From an uncultured Spirochaetaceae bacterium (lineage in GTDB: Bacteria; Spirochaetota; Spirochaetia; DSM-27196; SLST01), in the NCBI GenBank assembly GCA_964599075.1, contig CAZREG010000003.1, positions 21,257 through 85,256 on the forward strand: a stretch of 64,000 bases of DNA. Reading direction: 5' to 3'. The position numbers and the translations under genes are program-made. Shown one piece after another: positions 19,820 to 55,537 of this stretch (position 1 is its first letter; each line of letters opens with the position of its first letter). The notes beneath the pieces are model-generated. The model saw nothing but the letters and a program-made list of their open reading frames with translations, ran no database searches and was not told the origin of the DNA.

Positions 19820-19821
19820 CG

Positions 19822-27675: not shown

Positions 27676-28550
27676 CGGACGAAGACCCCCCTGCGAAGGT
27701 ACGAGAATACTACGTCCTCGAACGGCACCGCCGTGGATGTGCGCAGGTACTCAACACTGTGGCTGAGACAGAACGTCTCCGCTTCACCAAAGAACTCGCT
27801 CAGTCGCCGTTGATACGCCTGCACGGTCTCAGGCTCCACATTGAGCTCACTCTCTTCCTCGGTCTCCCCGTCGATCAGTCGCAACGGCCCCCGCATCTGA
27901 GGATCAAGCTCCTGCTCATCCATGACCTGGATCAGCATGATATCGAACTTGCGGTAGATGAGCGCACGCAGGCCATCCTGGTAGCCGGCGGGGTCAAGGA
28001 GATCGGTGATGAGGATTGCGAGGCCGGGACGGCGGGTTCGAAGCGAGTAGTCTTTGAGGGCACGGTTGAAGTCGGTCTTGCCGGAAGGACGAAGATTCTC
28101 CACGTAGTCAAAAATGGAGAAGACACGGCTCTTCTGGCGAACCGGCGGGAGGGAGTGCTCAACGCCCTCCGCGAATGCGCTCAGGCCCACCCGATCGAGG
28201 TTGTTGACGGCAAGGTATCCAAGAGCGGCCGCCAGTCGACCGGCGTACCAGAGCTTGCCCGGCGAGCCGAACGACATCGATCTACTGGTGTCTATGAGGA
28301 TGTGAACCGTCAGGTTCTCCTCAGCGGTGAAGATCTTCACGAACAGCCGGTTCAGCCGGCTGTAGATGTTCCAGTCGAGATAGCGAAAGTCATCCCCGGG
28401 CTGGTAGAGACGGTAGTCGGAGAACTCGAGCGAGGCGCCGCGGTCGATAGAGATATTCTCACCTCTGCTTGCGCCTGCGCGGATCCTGCGCGAGAGGAGA
28501 GAGAGCTGTTCGAGTCTGTGCAGGAACGCCTCGTCGAACATCTTTACCAC
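27672..28550 (-). CDS. DUF58-domain protein (module B)
   Basis: EFSDYRLYQPGDDFRYLDWNIYSRLNRLFVKIFTAEENLTVHILIDTSRSM is the canonical DUF58 core. Confidence 0.85.
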   Translation of the reverse strand: MVKMFDEAFLHRLEQLSLLSRRIRAGASRGENISIDRGASLEFSDYRLYQPGDDFRYLDWNIYSRLNRLFVKIFTAEENLTVHILIDTSRSMSFGSPGKLWYAGRLAAALGYLAVNNLDRVGLSAFAEGVEHSLPPVRQKSRVFSIFDYVENLRPSGKTDFNRALKDYSLRTRRPGLAILITDLLDPAGYQDGLRALIYRKFDIMLIQVMDEQELDPQMRGPLRLIDGETEEESELNVEPETVQAYQRRLSEFFGEAETFCLSHSVEYLRTSTAVPFEDVVFSYLRRGVFVR

Positions 28551-29557: not shown

Positions 29558-31064
29558 TCCTTTCCTCTTCTGCCACCCGGGTTACTCTCAGGAAGTAGTT
29601 GCGCACCAGCCGCTGCAGCTCCGGTGGCGTCCCCTCCCGTGATATTGCCTGCTCGATTACTCGTTCGAATACAACGTCCCGTTCCTGCTCACTGAGTCCG
29701 GAGGTTGCCTCGGAGGGCAACTCCCGGATAATGACATCCATGATCGTACTATCCGTCACAATGCCCTGAAGCTCGCGAAACACCGGACTTGATTCTTCTA
29801 TTCGTGAGAAGTCGTCTCCTCGCTCGTCCGCTATCGCCATGTCTCCACCCTGCTGGCCCTGGGCGTCCTGATCCGACTGATTGCGCTCCTGCGCCGATCG
29901 CTCGTCCTGATTCTCATCACCACCCTGGGAGATCCCGCTCTCACCCCGCGGACCGGCAGGCAGGTCCTCACCCTGAGTGACCTCCGCAAGACCCTCTCCG
30001 GTCTGCTCCACTACGCGACGACTCTCCCTCAGATCGTTCACAATATCGCTCTCCGCCTCTTCCGATGGGGCAGGGCGGTTCAGCTGGTCCATCAGCTCCT
30101 GCACCTGTTCCCGCTCAAGGCCCAGGTTTGTATCCGGGGCTCTGTCAGGCGTAGCCTCTTCGAGTGCCTCGACCATCTCCGGCACCGTGTTGCCCTCACT
30201 TCGCATGCGGGTGAAGAACTCCTGCACCTCTTGCTCTCCCATTCCACGCTGCAACGCGCTTCGAATGGCTTCTTCTGTCTCCGGTGGAATCACTACGTCT
30301 TCGCTTTGCTCGAACGGGCGGGTACGCTCAATGCTGCGAATCTGCTCCTCAATCCGGCTGCTCAGCTCTTCTATACGCGCTCTCGCCTCCTCGGGATCAA
30401 TCCGGCTCTGGGTAAGCCGGTCGCCGAGCTCCTGCATCTGTCGGGCGAGGTCCTGCAGCACTTCGTTTGCATCTGCCCGTTCCGCGAGTCGCCGTCCCGC
30501 GTCCTGCAGCTCGACTCCCCGCGCAACAACTGCGGGTTGCTCGCTGTCGAACCAGCCGCTGACACTGAGCACAACTGCAATGAGCAGGGCAACCGCCAGG
30601 CCCGCCGCGCTTGCCGCCTGCCCCGGTATCTCGAGGGGATAGACCTGATCGGGCTCCACCTCCGCCACGAACGCATCCGCGCGTCTGCAGACCGCTTGCT
30701 GGAACGCGAGCTCGTCAGCTGAAGCGGGCGCCGCCTTCCCCGTGGATTGCTCAAACTGATACGCTGAGACCAGCAGGGCGTGAGTGTTGTACCGACGGTC
30801 GGCCTCTATCAGAAGTCCGGTGGGTTCTACCCGTTGGACGGCTGCGAGCAGGAGGGTGAGCAGGAGAGCAATTCCTGCGATCACGGTGACAAGCCTTACA
30901 AGCGGGAGGTCCAGGCCAAGTCCAATGTCGGTAACCGTGAGGGCGAGCGAAAGAGCAAGCGAAACGGTAGCTATCCGGGCGCCAAGCGCAAGGATCTGGG
31001 TGATCCGGTAACGAGTGTCGAGCAGACGCACCAGAGTCTCCAGTTGTGTGGGTCTGCTGCTCAT
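29544..31064 (-). CDS. membrane-anchored acidic coiled-coil protein, unknown function
   Basis: 506 aa. Two N-terminal TMs, a third at about aa 150-170, then a long E/D/Q-rich helical region and a C-terminal PPELQRLVRNYFLRV motif. 14-nt overlap with moxR. Confidence 0.6.
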   Translation of the reverse strand: MSSRPTQLETLVRLLDTRYRITQILALGARIATVSLALSLALTVTDIGLGLDLPLVRLVTVIAGIALLLTLLLAAVQRVEPTGLLIEADRRYNTHALLVSAYQFEQSTGKAAPASADELAFQQAVCRRADAFVAEVEPDQVYPLEIPGQAASAAGLAVALLIAVVLSVSGWFDSEQPAVVARGVELQDAGRRLAERADANEVLQDLARQMQELGDRLTQSRIDPEEARARIEELSSRIEEQIRSIERTRPFEQSEDVVIPPETEEAIRSALQRGMGEQEVQEFFTRMRSEGNTVPEMVEALEEATPDRAPDTNLGLEREQVQELMDQLNRPAPSEEAESDIVNDLRESRRVVEQTGEGLAEVTQGEDLPAGPRGESGISQGGDENQDERSAQERNQSDQDAQGQQGGDMAIADERGDDFSRIEESSPVFRELQGIVTDSTIMDVIIRELPSEATSGLSEQERDVVFERVIEQAISREGTPPELQRLVRNYFLRVTRVAEEERNEQQ

Positions 31065-31828
31065 TGGTTCCTCCTGTTCGCGAGCGTACGGTGCCGCTGT
31101 AGCACCCCCCAGAATACGCCGGCTAACGCTACCGTCAGGAGTGAGAGTGAGATGACGCCGGCCGTCGCCGCCCCGGTACCGCCCGGCTCAACTCCGGCAA
31201 CCGCACCCGGTGCACCCGCGGCAATCTGCTCAACCGCGGCGACCACCGGATTGAGCGGCCGAAAGAGTCTCAGGGTCAGAACAAAGAAGAGCACTGCAAA
31301 GACCCAGACTCCGATCGTTTTCACGACGTAGGAATCCTCACCATAGTGACTGACAATCATAGCTGCGATGCGGCAGGCCAGGGCTGTGAGGAACACCACC
31401 AGCAAGAGGCCCGGGATGACCCCGATGGGTACACCTGAAGGACCGGCGGCGGCGACCAGCACCGGGATGCTGAGGGCAGTCAGGAAGGCAGTGTGGAGCG
31501 TCGCTGCCATTAGCTTGCCGGCGACCAGCGAGCGGACCGGCACGCGGGTGCGCTCAAGCCACTCGGAATACCGGATGATGCCGGCCGAGCCAATCCGATC
31601 CGTTCCTGCAGAGAAGCTGAAGAATCCGGAGAGAATTATCAGGAACACCACATTTGCCAGGAACACCAGCGGGACCGTCTCCATGCGGAAAAAGTACATG
31701 TAGCCTCGCGAGGGCCAGGCAATGACGAGAAACAGAGCAAGCAACACCAGGTACCCAACGTGGAGCTTCAGAAACCCACGGCTTCGGATGTAGAGCTCCG
31801 CTGATTCTTCCAGGACTGGATTTTTCAT
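31061..31828 (-). CDS. six-TM integral membrane protein (ABC-2-permease-like), unknown function
   Basis: 255 aa with about 6 hydrophobic helices. 4-nt overlaps on both sides. No cognate ATPase is adjacent. Confidence 0.55.
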   Translation of the reverse strand: MKNPVLEESAELYIRSRGFLKLHVGYLVLLALFLVIAWPSRGYMYFFRMETVPLVFLANVVFLIILSGFFSFSAGTDRIGSAGIIRYSEWLERTRVPVRSLVAGKLMAATLHTAFLTALSIPVLVAAAGPSGVPIGVIPGLLLVVFLTALACRIAAMIVSHYGEDSYVVKTIGVWVFAVLFFVLTLRLFRPLNPVVAAVEQIAAGAPGAVAGVEPGGTGAATAGVISLSLLTVALAGVFWGVLQRHRTLANRRNQ

Positions 31829-33747
31829 GAGGATGTTCCTGTTGTGGTGTCCGCGGGCTCATCCAGCCAGACCGGTATGGTGAGTACGCCCAGACCAAGC
31901 GTCCGGGAGAATGGTGGGGATATCTCCACCGGGATAAGTTCCTCCTCAAGCCAGGCAACTACCATAATACTCGGAGCGCGCTCGTCTGCAAAATATTGAC
32001 TGCGGCCAATGTCACCGAGCAGCCGAATCCGATTGGGACGCAGCTCTCCCTCATCAACGTAGGCGTCCCAGTCAATCGCCTCAAAACGGGCTACCGGGTC
32101 CGGTTCCGCAACGACCTCCACTGTTTCACCCGGTTGCAGATCTCCCACCCGCTGCGGAAAACCCCGATGGATGAAGGTAATTCCCCTCAGCGTGAGGTCA
32201 CTCTGGTTCTGAAGGGTGATCACGGCAAACGCCGGGTCTTCCTCCACGTCCACCCGGAGTGCCAGCGGTACCAGGTCTATCGCGAGAGCGTTGCTGTGGC
32301 CCCAGCTCTCGGTCTCAAGAACGGCAACGCGTGAAGCGGTCCGTTCGCGTATCATCTGGTTTTGATTGTCCAGCGGCATCACCAGCGGTCGGCTTGGGTA
32401 AGAGAGCTCGTAGCGACCCGCCTGACGGCTGAACAGCACACTGTCCCGCGTCACGGAGGCGTACTGCTCACCCGGACGCAGATTGACCCGTTCAAGCGAA
32501 AACGCGAGCGCCTCGTCCGGCTGGAGGCTGACGGTGAGAGCCAGATGTGCGGTCCCCGCTACCAGCGTGATCGCCAGCAGCACCAGCGGCAGCCCCAGCA
32601 TGCGTCGCGCCGCCGACCGCCCGCGCTGTAGCCAGAACAGGAGCGTCCCCAGCGCAATCAGGTAACTGACGAACAGGCCGATCACCAGTCCATGACCGGG
32701 AAACTGGTAGACCGGTAGAGCAAGCTGATTCGCCATGAGCTCGTCCTCGAATACGCGGCGGCGCATCTCGGTTGCGATCGGGTTAAGCGCTGAGCGATCC
32801 GTGAGAAGGGCACTCCAGAGCGCCACGCTCGACAGCGGGGCAACCCGCACCAGATTCACGTAGTCGAAGGGAAGAAACACGATATCGCCGGCGCCGACTT
32901 TAGTCCGTGAAACCTGTTGACCGTACTCCAGCGTAGCTCCTACAACAACCTCCCGCGTCCTCTCGACCGGCTCGAGAGGAAGACCCGCCTCCAGCAGCCC
33001 CACAGACTCAACCGTCCGGAGGTCTATCCCCGCCGGAGTGAGAGAGATGAGCGGTGCAAGTGCCTGCGAATCCGCCGGACCGAGGTGCGTGCCACCGGAG
33101 ATAACAAGGCGGCCACCGGCGGCAATCCAGCTCTTGATAGCCTGCGTCTGCCCCGTTGAGAGTTCCGCGAGCCGGGCATCCTGAATCACCAGCACATCCA
33201 CCCCGTCGTAGCCGTGCCAGTCGTGCGGAAGGAACTCAATAAGGGGATAAGCGATATCAAGCGCCCGCTCCTCCCGAGAGTTGAACAGCGGCAGCAGGAA
33301 GTCCAGATTGGGCCGTCTGGCCAAGACCGTAACCAGACGGCCGGGCGCACTCTTGCCGGAGAGCTCAATCTGCTGCTCAAACACCAGCTCATTCTCCTCT
33401 CGTATCTGGAGCACAACCGGGTAGACCGTCGTTTCAAGCGGCAGAACAAAGGAGAATGCCTTGCTTGCTCCTGAAACGAGCTCGAGGTCCCGGGTATACT
33501 CAACCGTTGTCCGGTCGTCTCCAAAACGGTTCCCGCGCGCTACCCGGACGGACAGGGTCCCGCGTATGTCCTGGCCCAGATTCTGGGTGAAAATGCGAAC
33601 GGGAGTCCACGCGCCGGCCCGAAAGACACCGCTGAACCCAACGGCAGCATCTACAGAAATTGAGGAGTGCTGCTGTGAAAAGGCCAGAGATCCTGAAGCG
33701 CACAGAAGGATCAGGAGCATGAGTGATCGGTTCACTGGCTTAAACAT
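31825..33747 (-). CDS. large secreted/membrane protein, unknown function (first gene of module B operon)
   Basis: Start chosen at ATG 33747 (MFKPVNRSLMLLILLCASGSLAFSQQ, a signal peptide); the track start is 33822. Has a segment VDVLVIQDARL..IKSWIAAGGRLVISGGTHLG and two central TMs. Confidence 0.6.
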   Translation of the reverse strand: MFKPVNRSLMLLILLCASGSLAFSQQHSSISVDAAVGFSGVFRAGAWTPVRIFTQNLGQDIRGTLSVRVARGNRFGDDRTTVEYTRDLELVSGASKAFSFVLPLETTVYPVVLQIREENELVFEQQIELSGKSAPGRLVTVLARRPNLDFLLPLFNSREERALDIAYPLIEFLPHDWHGYDGVDVLVIQDARLAELSTGQTQAIKSWIAAGGRLVISGGTHLGPADSQALAPLISLTPAGIDLRTVESVGLLEAGLPLEPVERTREVVVGATLEYGQQVSRTKVGAGDIVFLPFDYVNLVRVAPLSSVALWSALLTDRSALNPIATEMRRRVFEDELMANQLALPVYQFPGHGLVIGLFVSYLIALGTLLFWLQRGRSAARRMLGLPLVLLAITLVAGTAHLALTVSLQPDEALAFSLERVNLRPGEQYASVTRDSVLFSRQAGRYELSYPSRPLVMPLDNQNQMIRERTASRVAVLETESWGHSNALAIDLVPLALRVDVEEDPAFAVITLQNQSDLTLRGITFIHRGFPQRVGDLQPGETVEVVAEPDPVARFEAIDWDAYVDEGELRPNRIRLLGDIGRSQYFADERAPSIMVVAWLEEELIPVEISPPFSRTLGLGVLTIPVWLDEPADTTTGTSS

Positions 33748-33785
33748 ACTTTGACCGCAGCGTGCCCGAGTAGTGTCCCGCACGT

Positions 33786-35036
33786 GTGGGGGTGCTTGAC
33801 CCGCGTCCGTTCCTCTCTCCATACTATCCCCACAATCTCGAGAGGTATTTCTTGCTCGTTCGTTACTCCAAAGACACGGCGGGACGCCATGTCCGCCAGG
33901 CCGTCATTTACACAAAAGAAGAACACGGCATCTCTTCCGACTCTGTCGATGCTGATGCGATCAAGATCATCAAGCGACTGCGCGGTGCCGGTCACCACGC
34001 CTACATTGTTGGCGGGGCGGTTCGCGATCTGTTGATCGGAAAGAATCCGAAAGATTTTGATATTGCCACTGATGCCCAGCCCAACCGGATTCGCAGGCTC
34101 TTTCGTAACTCACGGATCATTGGTAAACGTTTCCGATTGGTGCATATCTTCTTTGGCCCCAAGATCATTGAGGTCTCCACCTTTCGCAGTGAGACGTCAG
34201 CCGGCTTTCAGAATGAGTACGGCGACATAGAAGAGGACGTGTTCCGGCGTGACTTCACCATCAATGCTCTCTACTACTGCCCGATCGAGGACCGGATCAT
34301 CGACTATGTGGGCGGCGTGAAAGACGTCCGGGATCGCAAGGTCCGCAACCTCATCCCGCTTGACCGCATCTTTGGCGAGGATCCTGTTCGTATGATCCGC
34401 GCCATCAAGTATGCCTGCACCACCGGATTCACGCTCATCGGCAAGCTTCGTCGTCAGATCAAGCGCTCGGCTGATCTGCTGTCGGAAACGCCGTACAGCC
34501 GAATGACTGAGGAGGTGTTCAAGATTCTCCTCTCCGGTCGTTCAGCAGAGATTGTCTCCCAGTGCATCAAGATGAAACTGTTTGAGCACATGCTCCCGGA
34601 GTTCCACGCTCTGCAGGTGGGTAATCGAGACTTCGAAAGGCAGCTGACCGGTCGTCTCGCGGATCTTGACCGGGAGGTCAGGGACGCCGGTGAGGATCGC
34701 CGGTCCCGGGCAATTGCCTATCTCTGTGCCGACTATCTGTTTGCGCATACGGAGGTGGGAAGCATGAGTCGCATTCCATTCGCCGACGGCTTCTCTGAGT
34801 TGAAGCGTGTCATCAAGCCGATTGTGCCGGCGAACAAAGAGGTTGAGATGGCACTGGTCTACCTCATCCGACGCCGAAAGAATTACACCAAGCTTGGAAA
34901 ACTTGAGACCGTGCCACCGGGCGAACGCGAGCGGGTGGAGGATCAGCCGTGGCGTCATGAGGATGACCCGGATGCGCCGAAGACCAAAAAAAAGAGGCGC
35001 CGCAAGCGACGCCCCCGTTCAAAATCAGACTCGTAA
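33786..35036 (+). CDS. pcnB: poly(A) polymerase I / tRNA nucleotidyltransferase family
   Basis: AIKIIKRLRGAGHHAYIVGGAVRDLLIGKNPKDFDIATDAQPNRIRRLFRNSRIIGKRFRLVHIFFGPKIIEVSTFR closely parallels my recollection of E. coli PcnB. Lys/Arg-rich C-terminal tail. Confidence 0.85.
   Translation: MGVLDPRPFLSPYYPHNLERYFLLVRYSKDTAGRHVRQAVIYTKEEHGISSDSVDADAIKIIKRLRGAGHHAYIVGGAVRDLLIGKNPKDFDIATDAQPNRIRRLFRNSRIIGKRFRLVHIFFGPKIIEVSTFRSETSAGFQNEYGDIEEDVFRRDFTINALYYCPIEDRIIDYVGGVKDVRDRKVRNLIPLDRIFGEDPVRMIRAIKYACTTGFTLIGKLRRQIKRSADLLSETPYSRMTEEVFKILLSGRSAEIVSQCIKMKLFEHMLPEFHALQVGNRDFERQLTGRLADLDREVRDAGEDRRSRAIAYLCADYLFAHTEVGSMSRIPFADGFSELKRVIKPIVPANKEVEMALVYLIRRRKNYTKLGKLETVPPGERERVEDQPWRHEDDPDAPKTKKKRRRKRRPRSKSDS
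34986..35013 (-). terminator. candidate rho-independent terminator of the TPR gene, embedded in the pcnB tail codons
   Basis: On the minus strand, an imperfect GC hairpin (35013-34996: GGCG, mismatch, CG, loop CTTG, CG, mismatch, CGCC) is followed by TC and T8 (34993-34986). It sits 27 nt after the minus-strand stop at 35040. Confidence 0.4.
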
Positions 35037-37208: not shown

Positions 37209-38222
37209 CTACCAGAACGCCGGCTTGAGCCCGTGCTCCAGCAGCACCTCCGGCACTCCCTCCGGAAAGGCCTGACGAAGCCGCCCCACGCTCGTCCGGG
37301 GCAGTGGCGCAATCAGCTCGTGAAAGTCGAGCACCTCGCTTCTCTCCCGCAGTGTCAGCCGTATCGCGTGCAGAAAGTAGGGCTGCGACCGTGAGGCGCC
37401 GTACTTGGCGTCACCAGCGAGCGGATATCCGTTGGCAGCCGCATGTGCCCGGATCTGGTGCGTGCGGCCGCTTTCAATGGTGACCAGGGCCAGTGTGACG
37501 CCCTCGCGTGAGAGAAGTGGCAGTGCGATCGAGCGCGCGGAGTGGCCGGCTGGATCGATGAAGCTCGTGTGACGGCTCCGATCGCGGTCAATTGGCTGTG
37601 ACCAGACGGTACGCGCGGGAAGGGCACCCTGGAGCAGCGTCAGGTACTCCTTCTGTATCAGTCGCATTTGAAGGAGCCGGCTTGCTTCCTGTGCTCCGGC
37701 GGTGCTGAGCGCGTACATCACCAGGCCACTCGTGTTGCGATCAAGGCGGTGCACGGGGCCGGGCCGGAAGCTCACGCCGCTGACTGCCTTGCGAAGGCCG
37801 TGCTGCTCCCAGTGTGCTTCAACCCGCTGCAACAGCGAGTGCTCTCCGTGGGTCAGTTCGCCCGGCAGCTTGTTTACGACCATCACGTCTGCGTTCGCGT
37901 GGATGATACGTTGCGCCTCTATCGCAGGCGCCTTCGACGCCGGGTCCGGCAGCACCACCGCCTCAGCGATCGGTCCCCGAAACGTCAATGCGTCCCCGTC
38001 GCAGACGCGTGTCTCAGGCGTCGCGCGACCGCCGTTTATCCGGATGTCCTTGCGTCGCAGGGCACGGAAGATGGAACCCATGCCCATGTCGGGCAGGAGC
38101 TTGCGCAGCACCCTGTCGAGCCTTCGCCCGTCGTCGTTGGTTCCCAGGTCGACCCGGCGCTCAGAATTGGCCATCTGCCATGCTATCACGTTGTGGTTGA
38201 CAAAGGGAGGAGCCGGGGACAC
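37209..38222 (-). CDS. RluA-family pseudouridine synthase with S4 domain (RluD-like)
   Basis: S4-like RLDRVLRKL...RINGGRA, catalytic HRLDRNTSGLVMYA, and RTHQIRAH. Start may be ATG 38174. Confidence 0.85.
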   Translation of the reverse strand: MSPAPPFVNHNVIAWQMANSERRVDLGTNDDGRRLDRVLRKLLPDMGMGSIFRALRRKDIRINGGRATPETRVCDGDALTFRGPIAEAVVLPDPASKAPAIEAQRIIHANADVMVVNKLPGELTHGEHSLLQRVEAHWEQHGLRKAVSGVSFRPGPVHRLDRNTSGLVMYALSTAGAQEASRLLQMRLIQKEYLTLLQGALPARTVWSQPIDRDRSRHTSFIDPAGHSARSIALPLLSREGVTLALVTIESGRTHQIRAHAAANGYPLAGDAKYGASRSQPYFLHAIRLTLRERSEVLDFHELIAPLPRTSVGRLRQAFPEGVPEVLLEHGLKPAFW

Positions 38223-38234
38223 TCTAACAGCACC

Positions 38235-38714
38235 ATGGTGTCAGCTCAGACGACCGGGCTCTTTGCGTTTCTCTCCGGACCGGTCTTTTTATCCGCATTC
38301 TTCTCCTGGTTTCTCGCGCAGCTTCTGAAGACCATCATAGACCTGGCACGCCAGCGGAGCCGATCCGCCGCCGGGGTGGTCTCCACCATGTTCTGGAAGA
38401 CCGGTGGCATGCCGAGCAGCCACAGTTCCCTCGTAACGAGTCTGGCCACCTCAATTGGCTTTGTCCATGGTCCCGATTCGCCGATATTCACCTTGAGCCT
38501 CTTCTACGGGGTACTCATAATCCGAGACGCGCTCGGTGTGCGTCGCAGCTCCGGGGTGCAGTCACGAACACTCAATGAGATGGGCTCCGAGCTCAAGCGG
38601 GCAATCGGGTATGAGTACCGACCGGTGAAAGAGGTGTACGGACATACACCCACGGAGGTGGCGGTCGGGGTACTGTTGGGCTTCTTCATCGCGCTCGCCT
38701 TTTCACTGTTGTGA
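38235..38714 (+). CDS. divergent PAP2-family (DUF212) membrane protein
   Basis: MVSAQTTGLFAFL..., GGMPSSHSSLVTSLATSIG and RDALGVRR motifs. Start set to ATG 38235; the upstream part of track ORF 37668 is antisense to the rluD-like gene. Confidence 0.75.
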   Translation: MVSAQTTGLFAFLSGPVFLSAFFSWFLAQLLKTIIDLARQRSRSAAGVVSTMFWKTGGMPSSHSSLVTSLATSIGFVHGPDSPIFTLSLFYGVLIIRDALGVRRSSGVQSRTLNEMGSELKRAIGYEYRPVKEVYGHTPTEVAVGVLLGFFIALAFSLL

Positions 38715-40228
38715 GAGTATCTCAATCCAGACGCATAGTTTCCCTGCTCTCCGCCCTGGCCTTTTTTGCGGCGAGTCTTCTTCTGTGGGCGCTCCTGCCG
38801 TCGATCTACCAGCCCGCACGTTCGTTTGCGCCGTACGTAACGGTGGCGACGGAGATGACCCATGATGATGCTGCCGAACGGCTTAAGGCCGCCGGGGCAG
38901 AACAGATCATCACACCCGCTACAACCTACGTGCTGCTCTCGCGAATCGGCCGTGTTGATGAGGTTCCGCTCTCGGCTGTTGATGAGCTGCTTGATCCCGT
39001 GGATCCGCGGCGTGACCCCTTTATGAAGGAGCTCTCCGCGTACTTCCGTATTGGTGGACAGAACGCCCTCTACGTTGAAGCCCCCGGCTCCCTGCTGGAT
39101 GCCCGGCGTCTGGTCAATAACGCCCTCGGGCCGGGCGCACGGGTGGCAGAGCTCGACCTCGCCGCCCGCTGGGCGTCTGCTGCGTTCCCGCTTCTGGCTG
39201 CACTGGCCGCGCTTGCGTACTCACTCCGTTCGGGCGGAGTCCGATTCATCTCATTTTTACCGTTCTTTCTCCCCTCGTTCTTTTTTGGGATCGGGGCGGG
39301 GGTCTCGGCTGCCCTCATGGCTCTTGCCATTGACTGGCTGCTCCTGGTGATGGATGCACCAAGGCGCGTTATGGACCGTGAGCTGGCCACTGCGCTTTTC
39401 GCGCAGCGCAGACGTCTGTTCTGGGTCGCTCTGGTGGTGCTCGCCGGGTTGCTCAACGCTTTTGTCCTTCACGGGCCGCAGGCGCTCCTGGCGCTGCTGC
39501 TTGCTATCGCCGGCTGCCTGTCGGTGCGAGCGGGTGCGGCCATCCTTGCACGTCCGGCCGTACGCGACGAAGAGCACCGTGCGTTTCGTCCGGTTCCAAT
39601 ACTGGTCAAGCCGCGGTTCAGAAGCACCAACAGCCGGGAACGTCTGGTCGCGGTTGTCGCGGTAGCCGGCATCCTTGTTCTCGCGCCGCTGATTGACCGC
39701 GTACTTACGACTCGGTCGGTCGACCGTCCGGTGCCGCATGCCGAACAGAGCGGTCCGGTCTCATTTGAGACCCTCCGCAACGTTGCCGCATCCCGCGTCT
39801 CCGGCTCCCTCCCGGATCTGTCCGACTACCTCGCGCACCGGGCATACCAGGAGAGCTTTGCCTACGGCGGCACGTATCAGTTCCCTGATCCTGATCAGCC
39901 CGTCATGCTCGAGCGCTTCCGACTGGGCGAGGACGGAGCCTTTACCTCGTTCTCCGAGCCGGTCCTCCAGTTTGATGATCAGTGGCTGCAGGCGGCTCTT
40001 ACCGACCCTCCGCCGGGCATCGTCTCGCTGCTGGCGACCCGCGACTACCCGTCAGGGGTTGCTCTGTCAGGGAGGGAGGCACTATACTCGCGCTATTCTC
40101 GGATTGCACTGCACGTCTTGTTTCTCACTCTCACGCTGCTCCCGTTTGCCGTCGGCTCGCCTCACCGGGTGCGTCTGAAGGGGAGAACAGGGGCCATCAC
40201 GACAGGACGCAGTCGCCAGGTTGCATGA
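38711..40228 (+). CDS. polytopic membrane protein, unknown function, translationally coupled to rnfC
   Basis: 505 aa. N-terminal TM, a ~100-aa soluble segment, a cluster of TMs, and a C-terminal soluble domain plus final TM. Its stop TGA (40226-40228) overlaps the rnfC ATG (40225). Confidence 0.55.
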   Translation: MRVSQSRRIVSLLSALAFFAASLLLWALLPSIYQPARSFAPYVTVATEMTHDDAAERLKAAGAEQIITPATTYVLLSRIGRVDEVPLSAVDELLDPVDPRRDPFMKELSAYFRIGGQNALYVEAPGSLLDARRLVNNALGPGARVAELDLAARWASAAFPLLAALAALAYSLRSGGVRFISFLPFFLPSFFFGIGAGVSAALMALAIDWLLLVMDAPRRVMDRELATALFAQRRRLFWVALVVLAGLLNAFVLHGPQALLALLLAIAGCLSVRAGAAILARPAVRDEEHRAFRPVPILVKPRFRSTNSRERLVAVVAVAGILVLAPLIDRVLTTRSVDRPVPHAEQSGPVSFETLRNVAASRVSGSLPDLSDYLAHRAYQESFAYGGTYQFPDPDQPVMLERFRLGEDGAFTSFSEPVLQFDDQWLQAALTDPPPGIVSLLATRDYPSGVALSGREALYSRYSRIALHVLFLTLTLLPFAVGSPHRVRLKGRTGAITTGRSRQVA

Positions 40229-41559
40229 TGCGCAAGACCAGCTTCCCAATTGGCGGGTTCTTCCCCGCCTCTCACAAGCAGAACACTCAGAACGAGCGCA
40301 TCCGGAACGCGATTATTCCCGCGGTTTCGGTAGTTCCCTTTGCTCAGAGCTCCGGTGACCCGGCAGAACCAACCGTTGGCATCGGCAGCAGGGTAGGCGA
40401 AGGCATGAGGATCGGGCGGGCCAGGAAACGGGGTTCCTGTGACCTTCACAGCCCGGTACCCGGCATAGTGGATGCGATTCGACCAATCGAGCTCCCGGGC
40501 GGTGTCCAGTGTGATGCTGCCGTTATTGCCATGGACGGCGAGTTCTCCCGGCTTGGCAAGCCTGCCGAGCAGTATGGCTGGTCGTCCTTTGCACCGTCGA
40601 CACTGCGGCGGCTCATCCGTGAGGGGGGTGTCGTTGAGCTTGCGGATGGCGGGCATCCTGTTGATGCGGTGCTCGCAAAAACGGTTGCCGACAGGTGCTC
40701 CACGCTCGTGGTCAGCGGCGCTGAGAGCGAGCCGTACCTCTCTGTGACGCAGCGGATGATGGTTGAGCATCCGGCCCAGCTTGCTGAGGCGACCGCCATT
40801 GTTGAGAAGCTGCTCTCTCCGGCAAAGACGGTTGTCGCCGTGGAACGGGACAAACGTGACGGCCTGCTGGCTCTGCAGGACGCCTTTCGCAAGCGACAGA
40901 TGCGTGTGCAGCTTTTCTCCCTCGATCTCAAGTATCCGCAGAGTGATCGGCTGCAGCTCATTCGCGCGACCACCGGCAGAGAGGTTCCCTCAGGCAGCGA
41001 GCCCATTGACATTGGATGTGTCGTGATCACTGTTCCCACCCTCTTTGCTATCTGGGAAGCGGTTGTGCTGCGAAAGCCGCTTATTGAACGCATTGTGACG
41101 GTTGCCGGCGGCGCGGTGGAGGCTCCCGCGAACCTCAAAGTCCGGATTGGAACGCCGGTAGGTTCTCTTCTCAGAGAGTGCGGTCTGCTACAGGAAGAGG
41201 TCGCGCGCGTAGTGGTCGGCGGGCCGTTCCGTGGATTTGCCGTCACTGATCTCACCACTCCCATCACCAAGACAACCCCTGCGGTTCTTGCGCTCACCCG
41301 GAAGGAGGTAAAGTCCGGAACGGTGCGTCCCTGTATCGAGTGCGGACGCTGCATGGAGGTGTGTCCGATCGGATTGAATCCCACGCGCCTGACCAGACTG
41401 GTGGATGCGGGGGAGGCTGGGCGCGCAGTCGCAGAGGGTTTGCTCGACTGCACCGAGTGCGGTCTGTGCAGCTACATCTGCCCGTCGCGCATCCCGCTTG
41501 TTGACAAGCTGAAAGAGGCTCGGGGAGCACCACGGACGGGTATCAGGACGCGTCAATGA
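40225..41559 (+). CDS. rnfC: RnfC-like subunit (two 4Fe-4S motifs; degenerate flavin/NADH motif)
   Basis: CIECGRCMEVCP and CTECGLCSYICP ferredoxin motifs, and SGAESEPYL where NGAECEPYL is expected. Positioned 5' of rnfD. Start ATG 40225 (track ORF 39982 extends into the upstream gene). Confidence 0.8.
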   Translation: MMRKTSFPIGGFFPASHKQNTQNERIRNAIIPAVSVVPFAQSSGDPAEPTVGIGSRVGEGMRIGRARKRGSCDLHSPVPGIVDAIRPIELPGGVQCDAAVIAMDGEFSRLGKPAEQYGWSSFAPSTLRRLIREGGVVELADGGHPVDAVLAKTVADRCSTLVVSGAESEPYLSVTQRMMVEHPAQLAEATAIVEKLLSPAKTVVAVERDKRDGLLALQDAFRKRQMRVQLFSLDLKYPQSDRLQLIRATTGREVPSGSEPIDIGCVVITVPTLFAIWEAVVLRKPLIERIVTVAGGAVEAPANLKVRIGTPVGSLLRECGLLQEEVARVVVGGPFRGFAVTDLTTPITKTTPAVLALTRKEVKSGTVRPCIECGRCMEVCPIGLNPTRLTRLVDAGEAGRAVAEGLLDCTECGLCSYICPSRIPLVDKLKEARGAPRTGIRTRQ

Positions 41560-42605
41560 TCACCAGTACAGCCCAATCGCCGCCGCAGGTGCGGCATCAT
41601 ACGACAACCAGCCGGATGATGTGGACCATGGTCGTTGTGCTTCTCCCGGCTTTCGGGTGGGGCGTTTTTCAGTTTGGTCTGCGTTCGATCACCGTCGTTG
41701 GCACGGCTGTTGTCACGGCTGTCGCCGCAGAGTTTGTCGCGGTGAAGCTTCTCAGGCGCTCGCTTCCCGGTGACGGGCACTCATTGCTCCTGGGTCTGCT
41801 GATCGGGCTCAGCCTGCCGGTTTCTGTCCCGCTCTTTGTTCCAGTGGTGGCTTCACTGTTCGCGCTTCTTGTGGTGAAGTGGAGCTTTGGGGGGCCCGGA
41901 GCATACTGGATGAACCCGGCGCTCGCCGGCTGGTCGTTCGCCTATATCTCTTTTCCTCAGGCGTGGACCGGAGTCGACGCGATGAGCGGTGCCACTCCAC
42001 TCTCGCTTGCGGCAGGAACAGCACCGGATGCGCTCGGCGCCGCTCGACAGGCCGGTATCGTTGGCTCGGTGCTTGATGATCAGGTGACCGACTGGCTCAA
42101 CGCTCATCTGCTCTCACGTGCGGATATCGACCTCCCCGGTGGCTACATAGATCTGTTTCTTGGGACCGCCGGCGGCGCTATTGGCGAGGTGAGTGCTGCG
42201 CTGCTTCTCCTGGGGTCGATCATCCTGCTCGGAGGCCGCGTTGTGCGCTGGCATATTCCAGCGGCCATGTTCGCGACCTATGCACTGCTGATTCGGCTTT
42301 TTGGGGGTTTGCAGTACGGAACCGGGCTCTTCAGTGGCGACGTTCTCTTCCATACGCTGAGCGGCGGTTTCCTGCTCGCGCTCTTCTTCCTGGCACCTGA
42401 GCCGGGCAGTGCCCCCTATACCCGTGGCGGGATGTGGATCTTTGGCGTTCTGGTCGGCGGTCTTGCCGCCCTGTTCCGGCTGTTCGGGGCCGCCGGGGAG
42501 GGTGTAGCGTTTGCGGTGATCATTGCAAACATCTGCGTCCCGCTCATTCACCGCTATACTCAACCGAGGCGATTCGGACAGCAACGCAGGGGAGTGGCCT
42601 CATGA
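41556..42605 (+). CDS. rnfD: Rnf electron-transport complex subunit D
   Basis: 349-aa polytopic NqrB/RnfD-like protein with flavinylation motif DAMSGATPLS. Confidence 0.9.
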   Translation: MITSTAQSPPQVRHHTTTSRMMWTMVVVLLPAFGWGVFQFGLRSITVVGTAVVTAVAAEFVAVKLLRRSLPGDGHSLLLGLLIGLSLPVSVPLFVPVVASLFALLVVKWSFGGPGAYWMNPALAGWSFAYISFPQAWTGVDAMSGATPLSLAAGTAPDALGAARQAGIVGSVLDDQVTDWLNAHLLSRADIDLPGGYIDLFLGTAGGAIGEVSAALLLLGSIILLGGRVVRWHIPAAMFATYALLIRLFGGLQYGTGLFSGDVLFHTLSGGFLLALFFLAPEPGSAPYTRGGMWIFGVLVGGLAALFRLFGAAGEGVAFAVIIANICVPLIHRYTQPRRFGQQRRGVAS

Positions 42606-43264
42606 GCGAAGCCAACGCAAGGCCGAGGCCCGGCCACTTCCGCAACGGATTCTTTGCCCACAACCCCATCTTTACCACCTTCCTTGGTCTCTGTCCTTCG
42701 CTTGCCGTTACCGCAGTGGTGTACCATGCCTTTGTGCTCTCGGTGGTGGTCTCAGCGGTGCTTCTTCTCTCTGCGCTCTGCGTCTCTCTCCTTCGTACGG
42801 TCGTTCCGCTGCCGTTTCAGAGGTTGGTGACGCTCGCGCTCATGGCCGTGCTCACGGTGATCGCGACCATGCTGCTCTCACGCTATATGCCGGATGTGCG
42901 TGAGGCGCTCGGCATCTATCTCCCGTTGGTTGCCGTCAACGTTGTTGTCATCTCTCAGGTGCAGACGGTCAGCTGGACCTCTGCGGTCGGGCAAAGTCTG
43001 GGTGATGCGGCTGGGCGGGCTGCCGGCTTCCTGGTTGGTCTTGTCCTTATTGCGCTGCTTCGTGAATCCATTGGTTCCGGGACCATTACGCTGATCGCTC
43101 GATCCGCACGAGAGCTCGTGCTCGTGCTCCCCGGACTCTCTGAGAATCCTGTCTCTGCCGTGGCAACGAGCGTCGGCGCGTTCCTTATTGCAGGATACCT
43201 CTCCGCACTCGTTCGGGTAGTCCGTCGACGAAAGAGCCCGGGCCGCATGGAGGACGATACATGA
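42602..43264 (+). CDS. rnfE: Rnf electron-transport complex subunit E
   Basis: FFAHNPIFTTFLGLCPSLAVT is the RnfE/NqrD signature. Start ATG 42602 overlaps the rnfD stop. Confidence 0.9.
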   Translation: MSEANARPRPGHFRNGFFAHNPIFTTFLGLCPSLAVTAVVYHAFVLSVVVSAVLLLSALCVSLLRTVVPLPFQRLVTLALMAVLTVIATMLLSRYMPDVREALGIYLPLVAVNVVVISQVQTVSWTSAVGQSLGDAAGRAAGFLVGLVLIALLRESIGSGTITLIARSARELVLVLPGLSENPVSAVATSVGAFLIAGYLSALVRVVRRRKSPGRMEDDT

Positions 43265-43857
43265 CGTTTCTCGGCGGTCTGCTTATGCTCACGCTCTTCT
43301 CCAACGTGGTTCTTGATCAGTTCCTTGGTCTCTGTGAGACCCGGGTATCCGGACGGGACCTCACCGGCACCGCACTGCTGTCTGCGATTATGACCCTGGT
43401 CGCTCTGATTGCCACCACGGTCAACTGGACGCTGTTCACATTTGTCCTTGAGCCCCTTGGGATCGCCTCTCTCTCGCCCCTGTTCTTTGTACTCGTAAAC
43501 CTGGGTATTGTGACCGGTTTCGCACTGCTCGCGGTGCGGGCGATCCCCGCGTACGCGGCGCTTCTCACCGACTACCTCTTCCGTGTTGGCGCGAACAGCC
43601 TCACTCTCGGGCTCGCCATTATTGCAGCAAACAGGATGGCGACCTTCGGTGGCGCGGTTGCTGCAGGTCTAGCCGGCGGAGCAGGATTCTTTCTGGTGAG
43701 CGCCCTCCTTGGAGCCATACAGGACCAGCTGAGGATTGCTCCGGTACCCCCGGCGATGCGCGGCATGCCCATCACGCTCGTGACCCTCGGTCTCATGGCA
43801 CTGGCATTTCTTGCATTTGATCAACTTTTGCTGCAGAACCTTGTGGGTTCCTGGTAA
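43261..43857 (+). CDS. rnfA: Rnf electron-transport complex subunit A
   Basis: 198 aa with six TMs. Has N-terminal NVVLDQFLGLC, matching the RnfA/NqrE pattern. Confidence 0.9.
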   Translation: MTFLGGLLMLTLFSNVVLDQFLGLCETRVSGRDLTGTALLSAIMTLVALIATTVNWTLFTFVLEPLGIASLSPLFFVLVNLGIVTGFALLAVRAIPAYAALLTDYLFRVGANSLTLGLAIIAANRMATFGGAVAAGLAGGAGFFLVSALLGAIQDQLRIAPVPPAMRGMPITLVTLGLMALAFLAFDQLLLQNLVGSW

Positions 43858-43964
43858 GACCCATTTACAAGCCATGGCTGCGGAAGTAGAATCCTGAGCA
43901 CGGTAGGTGCTTGCTGGGGGGCCCCGTGACGCACGGGTGATGGCGCCGATCCTACAGGAAGATA

Positions 43965-45947
43965 ATGAAGAAGGTGAGGCTCATCTTTGGTTCCACGAAC
44001 AGTCAGGCTGTTGGGATCACAGATGAGGAGTTCGAACAAGTCTACCAACGCTCCTACAAGCCCTACCTCAGAGCTCTCTACAACGCCTCCGAAGTTCCCG
44101 TCACTCTCCACTTCTCCGGACATCTGCTCCAGTGGCTCGAGCGCCATCATTCAGAGTACACGGACGTCCTCTCGGAGATGGTCAGTCGCAAGCAGTGTGA
44201 GCTGCTCGGCGGTGGCTTCTACGATCCGGTTCTGACCCTCATTCCGCGTCTCGATCGGCTTGGCCAGATTGAGAACATGACCACCTATATAAGAAAGCGC
44301 TTCGGTCGCAGACCGCGCGGAGCATGGATCACCGAGCACGTCTGGGAACCGAGCCTTGCGAGCACACTCAAGTCGAGTGGAATCGAATATGCGTTCCTGG
44401 ATGATCACCATTTTGTTGCCGCCGGGCTCCACGGTGAAGACCTCTGTCGTCCCTGTATCACGGAGGATCAGGGCAAGACCATCGTGGTGTTCCCCGTCTG
44501 TCACGAGATGCGCTCCATCTCCCGTCACGGCACTCCCGAAGAGGTGATCGCCTATCTGAAGAAGCATCGTAACGCGGACGACTCTCAAGTACTCTCCCTG
44601 ATCGATCGTGGCGAGCAGTACGGCGACGACGAGACGGTGGACAGACCTGCAATGCGGAATGTCTGGCTCGGGCAGTTCGTCGAGCTGCTCCAGGAGAACC
44701 GGGATTGGATCGATATTGTCCTGCCGGCGACGATTGTGAAGGAACCAAGAGCCCGTGCTCGCGCCTACTTTCATACTGCGAGCTACAAGGACATCGTGGG
44801 AGGTAACGGGAACGGAGCGACTGCGGAAAACGGTGATCGAATTGTGGGGCACTTTCGTCAGTTTCTCGCGCAGTATGCAGAGAGCAATCAGATGTACGCG
44901 AAGATGCAGTATACGCATGTGCTGGTGAACCAGATACGAGGAGACAAGTACCGCAAGCAGGCTGCCCGTGAGGAGCTCTGGCGCGGCCAGTGCCATAACG
45001 CGTACTGGAACAGCCATCGCGGCGGCATCTTTCGTAATCGACTGCGCAAGCAGGTCTATCACGCTCTCATTGAGGCGGAGAAGAAGACGCGCGAGCGTGG
45101 AATTTTCATTCCTTCCATAGTCAAGATAGACTTTGACATGGATGGTCTGGAGGAGTACCTCTATCAGGGGCAGGATCTCAATGCGTACGTCCATCAGTGC
45201 GGCGGGGTGATGTTTGAGCTTGACCATCTGCAGACCTGCTGGAACTACCTGGACACGCTTGCGCGCCGCATGCCCCGCCAGAGTCCCGGAACAGCACCCC
45301 AGGAAGGGTACGACCGCTACTCGCGTCAGGCGTTCCTTGATCACTTTCTGACCAGGGAGCTCTCGCTCGCGGAGTTCAGCTCCGGCACCTACGAGCAGCT
45401 CGGTAGTTTCGTAGCGCAGAACTACGTGCCGGTCCGGGTCAAGCGAGACAGCCACGTCATTGCCTTTGAGGTAGAGGGAGTGGTCCACGCCGGCGGTGCG
45501 GAGTGCCTGGTGGGGCTGCACAAGCAGTATCGATTCAAGCGTGGCATCGTGGAGGTTGATTACACGGTGGAGCTGCTTGCAGGAGAGCAACTCGCTGTTT
45601 GCTTTGCCCCGGAACTCAACTTTGCCTTCCTCTCAAGCGAAGGTGACGTCCTCCGGTTGCTCTGGCGGGCGGCAGAGGGTGAACTGTCCGAGATGAGTGA
45701 GGAGAGTGTGGAGCTGCCTGCCACGCAGGAGCTGAGGATGGAAGACCTCCACAACGGAACGGCCCTCAACGTACAGCTGGACCGGGATATCCCTGTCTGG
45801 ACCATGCCGGTGCGAACTGTCCACCATGTAGACGGTGAGGAACGGTCTGAATATCAGAGTACCAGTGTCATTCCACGCTTCCTGCTCGAACTCAAGCCGG
45901 GCGAGTCGTTTTCTACGTGTGTGAGACTCAAGCTTGAGAAGCTCTGA
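43965..45947 (+). CDS. glycoside hydrolase family 57 protein (4-alpha-glucanotransferase-like architecture)
   Basis: Collinear with my recollection of the Thermococcus litoralis GH57 enzyme: VRLIFG..., HFSGHLLQWLE, GGGFYDPVL, GAWITEHVWEP, GQCHNAYWN. Confidence 0.85.
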   Translation: MKKVRLIFGSTNSQAVGITDEEFEQVYQRSYKPYLRALYNASEVPVTLHFSGHLLQWLERHHSEYTDVLSEMVSRKQCELLGGGFYDPVLTLIPRLDRLGQIENMTTYIRKRFGRRPRGAWITEHVWEPSLASTLKSSGIEYAFLDDHHFVAAGLHGEDLCRPCITEDQGKTIVVFPVCHEMRSISRHGTPEEVIAYLKKHRNADDSQVLSLIDRGEQYGDDETVDRPAMRNVWLGQFVELLQENRDWIDIVLPATIVKEPRARARAYFHTASYKDIVGGNGNGATAENGDRIVGHFRQFLAQYAESNQMYAKMQYTHVLVNQIRGDKYRKQAAREELWRGQCHNAYWNSHRGGIFRNRLRKQVYHALIEAEKKTRERGIFIPSIVKIDFDMDGLEEYLYQGQDLNAYVHQCGGVMFELDHLQTCWNYLDTLARRMPRQSPGTAPQEGYDRYSRQAFLDHFLTRELSLAEFSSGTYEQLGSFVAQNYVPVRVKRDSHVIAFEVEGVVHAGGAECLVGLHKQYRFKRGIVEVDYTVELLAGEQLAVCFAPELNFAFLSSEGDVLRLLWRAAEGELSEMSEESVELPATQELRMEDLHNGTALNVQLDRDIPVWTMPVRTVHHVDGEERSEYQSTSVIPRFLLELKPGESFSTCVRLKLEKL

Positions 45948-47361: not shown

Positions 47362-48463
47362 ATGCTACAAGAACTTTCTACACCAATTCAAGAGCTCCAG
47401 GAGCAGATCCAGACCACCTGGAGGTCTCTTTGACTCGGATAAAATTCGTTCAGAGATAGCCAAACTGGAGCAGAAGTCCGCAGATCCCAACCTCTGGAAC
47501 AACCACGATGAAGCCGAGCGTGTGATGACCGAGCTCAAGCGTGTCAAGGAGCGGATTGAGCCGTGGGAGACGCTGAGCTCACAGGTTCATGATCTTTCCG
47601 AGCTCTACGAGCTTGCCGTTGCCGAAGAGGCATCCGGCATGGAGGCTGAGATACGGTCAACCCTTGGGGTCCATAAGAGGACCTTTGACCGGCTTCAGAC
47701 AAGGGAGCTGCTCTCCGACGAGTTTGATACCGCGAATGCGTTCCTCACCATTCATTCCGGTGCCGGCGGTACAGAGGCCTGTGACTGGGTGAGCATGCTC
47801 TACCGGATGTACAACCGCTGGGCCGAACAGAGCGAGTTCAAACTGGAAGTCATCGATCTGCTGGAGGCTGAGGGCGGTATCAAGAGCCTGACCATGCAGG
47901 TCAGTGGTAACTACGCGTACGGTTACCTCAAGAGCGAGACCGGCATCCATCGGCTTGTGAGAATCAGTCCGTTCGATTCCAGTGGGCGAAGACACACCTC
48001 CTTCGCCTCAGTCTACGTGAGTCCGGTGATAGAAGATGATATTGAGGTGGATATCAGACCTGAGGACATCCGCGTGGATACCTACCGTGCGAGTGGTGCA
48101 GGGGGACAACACGTCAACAAGACTGACAGTGCGGTCCGGCTCACCCACCTGGAAACCGGGATAGTTGTGCAGTGCCAGAACGAACGGAGTCAGCACAAGA
48201 ACCGGGCCACCGCCATGAAAGTGCTCAAGAGCCGGCTCTACGAGCACTATCGCGCACAGCAGGAGGCGGAGCAGGCGAAGAGCGCGGCAGAGAAGAAGGA
48301 TATCAGCTGGGGGAACCAGATCCGCTCCTACGTGTTTCAGCCGTACACCATGGTGAAGGATCATCGAACCAATCACGAGACCGGGAACGTCCAGGCAGTC
48401 ATGGACGGTGCGCTTGATCCGTTTATTGACGCCTGGCTGCATCATCGCTGGGACGGCACATGA
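47362..48463 (+). CDS. prfB: peptide chain release factor 2, with programmed +1 frameshift (join 47362..47430, 47432..48463)
   Basis: Frame 0 reads MLQELSTPIQELQEQIQTTWRSL then TGA. The +1 frame continues DSDKIRSEIAKLEQKSADPNLWNN... into the 47522 ORF, which carries RISPFDS (SPF) and GAGGQHVNKTDSAVR (GGQ). Confidence 0.9.
47420..47434 (+). promoter_or_regulatory. RF2 autoregulatory frameshift site
   Basis: An internal SD-like GGAGG (47420-47424), 3 nt before the slippery CTT TGA C (47428-47434). This is the canonical prfB recoding signal. Confidence 0.85.
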
Positions 48464-55471: not shown

Positions 55472-55537
55472 GCCGTCTCCCGGCATAGACGATCCGAGCC
55501 GGTTGCGATATTCTCAACCCCACCCAAGGAAGCCATT

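Follow-up and report, generated by a model that had tools for sequence, protein, structure and literature searches.

An Rnf-type gene cluster in a 64,000-nucleotide (nt) stretch of DNA from an uncultured Spirochaetaceae bacterium (GenBank assembly GCA_964599075.1, contig CAZREG010000003.1, positions 21,257–85,256; the whole stretch is hereafter called the window) encodes RnfC, RnfD, RnfE and RnfA and has neither rnfG nor rnfB. The four genes follow a gene for a 505-amino-acid (aa) membrane protein, here termed X505, and precede a GH57 gene. We favour the view that this cluster is a lineage-specific, reduced descendant of an operon with the order (DUF212)-X505-rnfC-D-G-E-A-B-GH57. In canonical Rnf, electrons pass from ferredoxin to the RnfB clusters, the [2Fe-2S] cluster of RnfA/E, the flavin mononucleotide (FMN) of RnfG, the FMN and then the riboflavin of RnfD, the [4Fe-4S] clusters of RnfC, the FMN of RnfC and finally NAD+, and RnfG alone bridges the roughly 35 Å from the A/E cluster to the RnfD FMN (PMC12174285). 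In the window, the first four stations of this path are absent or crippled and the last is degenerate; the RnfD flavin sites and the RnfC iron–sulphur (Fe-S) clusters are its only remaining middle. Judged from the sequence, these losses support the conclusion that the canonical electron path cannot operate in the window.

Six genes on the forward strand make up the cluster. The first encodes a DUF212 (divergent PAP2-family) membrane protein of 159 aa (38235–38714) that belongs to PF02681 (E 3.7e-40; 137.5 bits against a cut-off of 26.5) and lies upstream of X505 in most related loci, with 47–80% identity. Its TGA overlaps the GTG start of X505 (38711–40228; one Cys). Next come rnfC (40225–41559; 444 aa; TIGR01945, 376 bits against a cut-off of 246) and rnfD (41556–42605; 349 aa; TIGR01946, 208 bits against 207), followed by a divergent rnfE (42602–43264; 220 aa; TIGR01948, 106 bits against 213) and a divergent rnfA (43261–43857; 198 aa; TIGR01943, 83 bits against 229), each of these two scoring less than half of its NCBIfam cut-off. 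Five 4-nt start/stop overlaps couple the six genes, with the sequence GTGA at 38711–38714 and ATGA at 40225–40228, 41556–41559, 42602–42605 and 43261–43264. Behind rnfA lies a 107-nt spacer (43858–43964), at the position that rnfB occupies in canonical relatives, with a promoter-like match at 43864–43892. The spacer leads to a forward-strand GH57 gene of the α-amylase/4-α-glucanotransferase type (43965–45947; PF03065, PF09094 and PF09095), a conserved downstream neighbour that is syntenic in nearly all related loci. By consensus scan, DUF212 has no promoter match immediately ahead of it, and rnfA is not followed by an intrinsic terminator.

Given the overlap of rnfD with rnfE and the mere 107 nt after rnfA, there is physically no space for rnfG or rnfB in the cluster. 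Hidden Markov models (HMMs) trained on spirochaete sequences, 23 of RnfG and 22 of RnfB, matched nothing when all 64 kb of the window were translated in six frames, and Pfam scans of the other window genes, which have ordinary housekeeping functions, returned no FMN_bind, RnfB-type FeS or ApbE domain. A preliminary description of this DNA, made from its letters and open reading frames (ORFs), had reported a cluster without rnfG and rnfB, and the overlaps, the spacer and the HMM searches bear this out. Its coordinates and junctions also stand, with one addition, the overlap of rnfC with rnfD at 41556–41559, which it had not listed. The same holds for its account of X505 as a polytopic, nearly Cys-free protein that is overlap-coupled to both DUF212 and rnfC: the structural model has eight transmembrane (TM) helices, the sequence a single Cys, and both overlaps are present.

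Comparison of the window with Rnf loci of related spirochaetes covered 58 operons, of which 21 are reduced. With a pattern built on the 18 closest X505 sequences, one genome per species was scanned, which gave 71 loci, all from Spirochaetota; their gene order was read by tblastn with the window proteins. The conserved order is DUF212, X505, rnfC, rnfD, a first gap, rnfE, rnfA, a second gap and GH57. Both gaps fall into two classes: rnfD and rnfE lie either less than about 95 nt or 560–790 nt apart, and rnfA and GH57 either 15–190 nt or 830–1055 nt apart. The long rnfD–rnfE gaps hold the gene for RnfG (PF04205 FMN_bind, SGAT-type motif), and the long rnfA–GH57 gaps that for RnfB (PF04060 FeS and Fer4). 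The operons classified were that of the window, those of the genome loci with rnfC or rnfD, and four fetched via RnfD. RnfG and RnfB are both present in 24 of the 58, and in three more RnfG is present and the contig ends before the rnfB position. Neither is encoded in 19, the window included. Two operons have a residual rnfD–rnfE gap of about 250 nt and no RnfB, two (loci L017 and L020) a degenerate RnfG and no RnfB, and one (L027) a 72-aa rnfG remnant together with intact rnfB; seven are unclassifiable.

The gene order of the window is found in 20 further species-level loci, one of them (L072) on a 5.55-Mb contig, and is therefore no chance feature or assembly artefact. L072 reproduces the layout of the window exactly: the order is DUF212-X-rnfC-D-E-A-GH57, the junctions overlap and the upstream genes are syntenic. 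L073 represents the canonical form, X(497 aa)-rnfC-D-G-E-A-B-GH57; its RnfD is identical to that of the cultured Spirochaeta isovalerica, and the upstream neighbours that it has in common with the window are PolyA polymerase, TPR, Asp23 and RluA. The distance from rnfA to GH57 is just 15–17 nt in L043, L050, L052 and L054, and GH57 is therefore probably co-transcribed with the rnf genes in these four loci.

Several loci capture partial stages of reduction. In L027, a 72-aa fragment (L027:6716–6931) that matches the RnfG HMM with 25.6 bits (E 5e-6) lies within a 308-nt rnfD–rnfE gap beside intact rnfB; it is an rnfG pseudogene still in place. L017 and L020 encode 184-aa RnfG homologues (L017:6197–6751 and L020:13892–14446) whose score with the spirochaete RnfG HMM is 190 bits and in which an SGAS motif persists; the L017 protein, the only one of the two that was scanned, has no match to Pfam FMN_bind. 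Both loci have lost rnfB, and the first cluster Cys of their RnfA is Ser. Truncation goes further in L032 (X505-rnfC-rnfD-GH57) and L028 (X505-rnfC-GH57), but RnfC is intact in both: none of its eight Fe-S Cys is missing, and the glycine loop is largely preserved. The loci form a graded series of CDGEAB, CDG′EA (G′ being the degenerate form), CDEA, CD (L032), C (L028) and none. In a neighbour-joining tree of RnfC and RnfD, reduced operons occupy at least two or three separate clades, with the window as the sister of L019 and the intermediates beside the reduced groups. Such scattered clades with adjoining intermediates point to repeated in-place deletion from a six-gene ancestral operon. Taken together, these loci make it probable that an X505-rnfCDGEAB-GH57 ancestor lost rnfG and rnfB by in-place deletion on at least two occasions.

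To place the cofactor ligands, RnfE and RnfA of the window were aligned with PDB entries 7ZC6, 9ERI and 8AHX. The ligands of the [2Fe-2S] cluster are C25 and C113 of RnfA and C25 and C108 of RnfE (PMC11889175); these four Cys hold the cluster within the membrane (PMC11889175; PMC12174285), and in Acetobacterium woodii mutation of the AE1 cysteines, of RnfG T185 or of the riboflavin ligands abolishes ferredoxin:NAD+ activity (PMC11889175). The window has kept the first cluster Cys of each subunit (C31 of RnfE and C25 of RnfA) and lost the second, which is V114 in RnfE (A. woodii C108) and S113 in RnfA (C113). All four Cys are present in 23 of 24 canonical operons; among the 21 reduced operons, 13 keep four, six keep two and two keep one. 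Among the nearest relatives of the window, L074, L019 and L075 have likewise lost the second Cys of both RnfE and RnfA and L072 has lost three of the four, and losses equal to or greater than that of the window are also found in L004 and L012. The Na+-site Glu of RnfE (A. woodii E115) is Q121 in the window; this position is Glu in 26 and Asp in one of 27 canonical operons, and Glu or Asp in 7 of 21 reduced operons.

In RnfC, the NuoF-type glycine loop (GxGGAxFPTxxK) is degenerate in the window (ELADGGHPVDAV versus GMGGATFPTHVK of 7ZC6_C), and its core, GGxx[FY]P, occurs in 26 of 27 canonical and in 0 of 21 reduced operons. Binding of FMN and NADH by this loop is established for NuoF/Nqo1 and is carried over to RnfC by homology as a putative function; the FMN site of RnfC has been described as complex-I-like (PMC9588780, PMC11889175). 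Both [4Fe-4S] motifs of RnfC are intact in the window (CIECGRCMEVCP and CTECGLCSYICP), and all eight Cys of the two CxxCxxCxxxCP motifs are kept in every locus. RnfD keeps the ApbE motif DAMSGAT (T147) and the riboflavin Asn (N120), and its second riboflavin ligand (A. woodii D249) is E282; the flavin site is in place and RnfD is predicted to be flavinylated. The flavinylation Thr of RnfD is lost in a second reduced clade (L031, L043, L050, L052 and L054). With neither substrate site left and the transmembrane input half gone, the window complex would be neither a ferredoxin:NAD+ oxidoreductase nor a Na+ pump, and its operation as a ferredoxin:NAD+ pump appears very unlikely.

Selection on the retained genes was estimated as the Nei–Gojobori ratio of non-synonymous to synonymous substitution rates (dN/dS) between closely related loci. 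The ranges for canonical and reduced pairs were 0.05–0.11 and 0.08–0.17 for rnfC, 0.04–0.09 and 0.05–0.18 for rnfD, 0.03–0.11 and 0.09–0.30 for rnfE, and 0.00–0.05 and 0.06–0.24 for rnfA. Constraint is relaxed yet clearly purifying in the reduced operons. Between the window and its closest relative, L074, dN is 0.28–0.40 and dS is saturated at 1.6–2.1.

We propose that in-place deletion removed the ferredoxin entry module (rnfB) and the periplasmic FMN shuttle (rnfG), and that decay would then have gone further in the window and its nearest relatives, where half of the RnfA/E Cys ligands, the RnfE Glu and the RnfC glycine loop are gone. RnfC and RnfD could form a short wire from Fe-S to flavin, taking electrons from a putative cytoplasmic donor docked on the ferredoxin-like Fe-S domain of RnfC to the periplasm-facing FMN of RnfD, with RnfE and RnfA kept as a structural scaffold. 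Our best guess for the function is such a wire, which accounts most economically for the parts that selection has kept, or a non-redox role. In its full form, this proposal would have RnfCDEA as a distinct, selected membrane complex that has abandoned ferredoxin, NAD(H) and Na+ pumping and acts either as a one-way conduit through the [4Fe-4S] clusters of RnfC and the flavins of RnfD or in a non-redox capacity; we put this forward tentatively, as a possibility rather than an expectation. A redox-independent role, with RnfD and RnfE/A as an ion-conducting or structural module and a structural or sensory function for the RnfC clusters, we consider unlikely. It would accommodate the loss of both substrate sites in a complex whose membrane subunits are still under selection, as well as a second reduced clade that is intact without the FMN-bearing Thr of RnfD. 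However, the Glu and Arg of RnfE implicated in Na+ handling are not conserved across the reduced operons, and cofactor ligands are the residues that the window clade conserves best, a pattern more in keeping with a redox role.

Some observations weigh against reduced descent and against the proposed wire. The absence of rnfG, rnfB and apbE is a result for the 64-kb window. The loss of the RnfD flavinylation Thr from L031, L043, L050, L052 and L054 weakens the wire as proposed. Moreover, 13 of the 21 reduced operons keep all four [2Fe-2S] Cys, and in these the cluster may still serve other partners. Finally, the function assigned to the RnfC loop rests on the analogy with NuoF/Nqo1 and not on an Rnf mutant.

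It is also improbable, and more so than a redox-independent role, that the four rnf genes are functionless, decaying relics heading towards the complete loss seen where X505 abuts GH57. The graded series from CDGEAB to none can be read in this way, as can the successive losses of cofactor sites and a constraint that is relaxed 2–5-fold relative to canonical operons. By contrast, dN/dS lies far below 1 for all four genes in every reduced pair, and the overlap-coupled reading frames of the reduced loci are intact, with conserved length and no frameshift, in 21 species-level lineages at 35–65% identity. The window, L072, L074 and L075 retain the start/stop overlaps, and every locus retains the eight Cys of RnfC. 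Purifying dN/dS on intact, coupled frames thus makes a dead relic unlikely.

We give still less credence to the idea that rnfG and rnfB lie elsewhere in the genome and that an ordinary six-subunit Rnf ferredoxin:NAD+ pump is assembled. In its favour, the window covers only 64 kb of the genome, 13 of the 21 reduced operons have kept the four [2Fe-2S] Cys, which would suit a cluster still in service, and the intact RnfD flavinylation motif implies an ApbE/Ftp enzyme somewhere. Yet the addition of RnfB and RnfG would still leave three breaks in the canonical path, at the ligands of RnfE, those of RnfA and the loop of RnfC, and subunits encoded in trans would be pointless for the window because the ligands that both serve are lost. 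Neither gene turned up in the window or within 10 kb on either side of any reduced locus. Among the best 80 metagenomic loci with a spirochaete-type rnfG, the gene stands between rnfD and rnfE in 80 of 80, with no orphans, and the remnant in L027 lies in place, which indicates deletion and not relocation. This evidence, although indirect, disfavours relocation. The preliminary description had argued that a complex lacking both subunits would need either a different electron path or partners encoded elsewhere; the loss of RnfE/A ligands and of the RnfC loop speaks for the former, and the latter fits less well.

Least probable of all is that X505 is a new Rnf subunit replacing RnfG, RnfB or both, for instance through a periplasmic domain that touches RnfD and RnfA/E: its stop overlaps the rnfC start, it adjoins rnfC in most loci and it has two α/β domains of putative periplasmic location, but its family stands equally ahead of canonical rnfCDGEAB operons (L073 and many others), occurs in loci without rnf genes and has no cofactor motif, with the same dN/dS (0.16–0.27) in both operon classes. 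The idea that X505 is a cryptic RnfG was rejected on an hhalign probability of 0.1% against RnfG. X505 precedes canonical operons in genome loci and in about 15 of the best 80 metagenomic rnfG loci; in L049, L059, L061, L063, L064 and L067, which have no rnf gene, GH57 is immediately preceded by a full-length homologue (502–578 aa), and X505 has other neighbours in L053, L055 and L071. It is therefore a conserved, co-transcribed neighbour and not a substitute for RnfG or RnfB, contrary to the role of substitute partner that had been considered for it.

What X505 is in its own right can be described in some detail. It has no match in Pfam or NCBIfam, none of 67 family members (67/67) belongs to a Pfam family, and the family profile has no match among PDB sequences. 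An HMMER scan of 1.84 billion representatives yielded 453 clusters at E ≤ 1e-3, mostly of 500–530 aa and aligning end to end; a word-index search gave three matches with the single sequence and three with a 67-sequence profile. Family motifs are DPxDPRxDP, EHRLFxPV, LPDxSDYLAHRAYQE and a C-terminal RRRQVA, with D98, H289 and W425 invariant, and the family alignment contains no conserved Cys and no [ST]GA[TS] flavinylation motif. We conclude that X505 is, on present matches, a new, unannotated membrane-protein family restricted to spirochaetes. Its extreme C-terminus (R-R-x-Q-V-A-stop; 40166–40225) is conserved to the last residue and overlaps the approach of the ribosome to the rnfC start; either protein-level constraint or translational coupling could account for this conservation.

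An alignment-based AlphaFold2 (AF2) model of X505 reached a predicted local distance difference test score (pLDDT) of 89.4 and a predicted template-modelling score (pTM) of 0.86; with the single sequence, the pLDDT was 43. The model comprises TM1, an α/β domain, TM2–6, a basic loop, TM7, a second α/β domain and TM8, eight TM helices in all, and both soluble domains would be periplasmic by the positive-inside rule. Its best Foldseek matches in the PDB are SecDF, MmpL3 and AcrB (E 1.4e-3, probability 0.97, TM-score 0.2–0.3), and the succession of TM1, a periplasmic α/β domain, TM2–6, TM7, a periplasmic domain and TM8 is RND/SecDF-like. The two nevertheless differ: X505 has eight TM helices instead of 12 and no conserved charged TM residues, and none of the 67 members matches the MMPL, ACR_tran or SecD_SecF families of Pfam. 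The modelled resemblance is weak and offers a lead, not a classification, and X505 would not be counted as a member of that group.

Other features of the window were also noted. AT skew is strongly negative only in the cluster (−0.23, −0.15 and −0.28 in the 2-kb bins of 38001–44000), as expected from T-rich codons of polytopic membrane proteins on the forward strand. Antisense ORFs were dismissed as high-GC artefacts at 40446–41453 (reverse strand, 335 aa, inside rnfC), at 44151–45590 (reverse strand, 479 aa, inside GH57) and at 55514–57019 (reverse strand, 501 aa, opposite seryl-tRNA synthetase), as was a long one inside X505; those in rnfC, X505 and GH57 were rejected because the forward-strand genes match their families strongly. 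No riboswitch, other Rfam family or tRNA was found in the 64-kb window. The gene for release factor 2, prfB (47362–48463, forward strand), has a programmed +1 frameshift at CTTTGAC (47428): the initial frame, ORF0, MLQELSTPIQELQEQIQTTWRSL followed by the stop, ends in CTT TGA C with GGAGG ahead of it, and release factor 2 continues in +1; the ORF list holds only the downstream part (47522–48463). A complete mevalonate-pathway operon on the reverse strand (4771–11256) encodes HMG-CoA synthase, an FMN-dependent (type 2 IDI-like) dehydrogenase, HMG-CoA reductase, diphosphomevalonate decarboxylase and two GHMP kinases, one of them without a Pfam match. Two MoxR-AAA/DUF58 sets stand in tandem on the reverse strand (18551–33822), the second with Bat-like BatA and VWA proteins and followed by three large ORFs (506, 255 and 665 aa) without Pfam matches. 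At 57068–60962 (forward strand), the gene for an McsB-like ATP:guanido phosphotransferase (462 aa) lies directly ahead of one for a ClpC/ClpB-type AAA+ chaperone (837 aa), with overlapping ends; the two are a predicted protein-arginine-kinase quality-control pair.

These results have consequences for annotation. Matches to RnfC and RnfD are routinely taken as the presence of Rnf in metabolic models of anaerobes and of metagenome-assembled genomes, and annotations that read the window operon as a working Rnf pump are probably wrong. With 21 of 58 operons lacking the ferredoxin module, the FMN shuttle and the NADH-site motif, and often the membrane Fe-S ligands, inferences about energy conservation drawn from such matches are unsafe. 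The graded operon series is a natural dissection of Rnf, in that it reveals which parts go while the rest stays selected, and X505 adds a widespread spirochaete family with a confident structural model. In the literature searched, we found no account of the ancestral state, the stepwise losses, the degeneracy of ligands and motifs or the selection analysis.

Set against canonical Rnf from A. woodii (9ERI), Clostridium tetanomorphum (7ZC6) and Azotobacter vinelandii (8AHX), RnfC, RnfD, RnfE and RnfA of the window are homologous (E 1e-17 to 1e-83) and follow the common order C-D-(G)-E-A-(B). The window matches canonical Rnf in an RnfC with two [4Fe-4S] motifs and departs from it in the FMN/NADH loop of RnfC: it also has no RnfG or RnfB, two of its four [2Fe-2S] Cys are substituted and the RnfE Glu is Gln. 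An evolutionary precedent for remodelled Rnf is Na+-NQR (NqrABCDEF): it dispensed with rnfB, and NqrA, which derives from RnfC, no longer carries FMN or either of the two Fe-S clusters (PMC12174285, PMC9588780). NQR, however, gained the input module NqrF and keeps NqrC, the equivalent of RnfG, and the four-Cys [2Fe-2S] cluster, whereas the window has gained no recognisable input module, has lost RnfG and cluster ligands, and keeps the Fe-S motifs of RnfC.

The closest analogue of the proposed short wire is provided by two-subunit Nqr/Rnf-like complexes, for which one-way electron delivery out of the cytoplasm and on to extracytosolic acceptors has been proposed (Meheust et al. 2021; PMC10979944). 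In these, an RnfD-like part without a flavinylation site is fused to a PF00175 NAD-binding domain and partnered by a flavinylated RnfG-like subunit. The window differs in each respect, as its RnfD consists of PF03116 only and keeps the site, and no FMN_bind protein is present; it is therefore not a complex of this type.

The nearest precedent is that of Treponema pallidum, which is known here from the literature alone. Its operon tp0153–tp0148 was described as a 'noncanonical Rnf': its only recognisable subunits are RnfC, RnfD and a putative RnfE, and an FMN motif of the RnfG type is lacking (PMC4436053). It is co-transcribed from tp0147 to tp0153 and flanked by unassigned membrane proteins (PMC4436053). 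A literature search for the locus tags TP0148–TP0153 found only this work, Deka et al. 2015. No Treponema is among the top 120 RnfD matches listed or among the loci of the X505 pattern scan, and low-GC members of the X505 family are named 'hypothetical protein' only. The layout of tp0153–tp0148 fits the X505-rnfC-rnfD-...-GH57 synteny, and the likely co-transcription of GH57 in L043, L050, L052 and L054 matches that of tp0147–tp0153. By this analogy, orthology of the T. pallidum operon with the reduced spirochaete operons is a strong lead, in which TP0153 would be the candidate counterpart of X505, and TP0150, TP0149 and TP0148 those of degenerate RnfG, RnfE and RnfA. Deka et al. asked how widespread noncanonical Rnf systems are (PMC4436053), a question that is now answered for free-living Spirochaetota, and the reduced operons offer a concrete approach to the long-standing puzzle of Rnf in T. 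pallidum bioenergetics. Later work models the T. pallidum operon as a flavodoxin-driven chemiosmotic ion pump (PMC7512555). For the window, the degeneracies described above argue against such a model, and if the T. pallidum operon does share these losses, the Rnf-based chemiosmotic model for the syphilis spirochaete would need revision.

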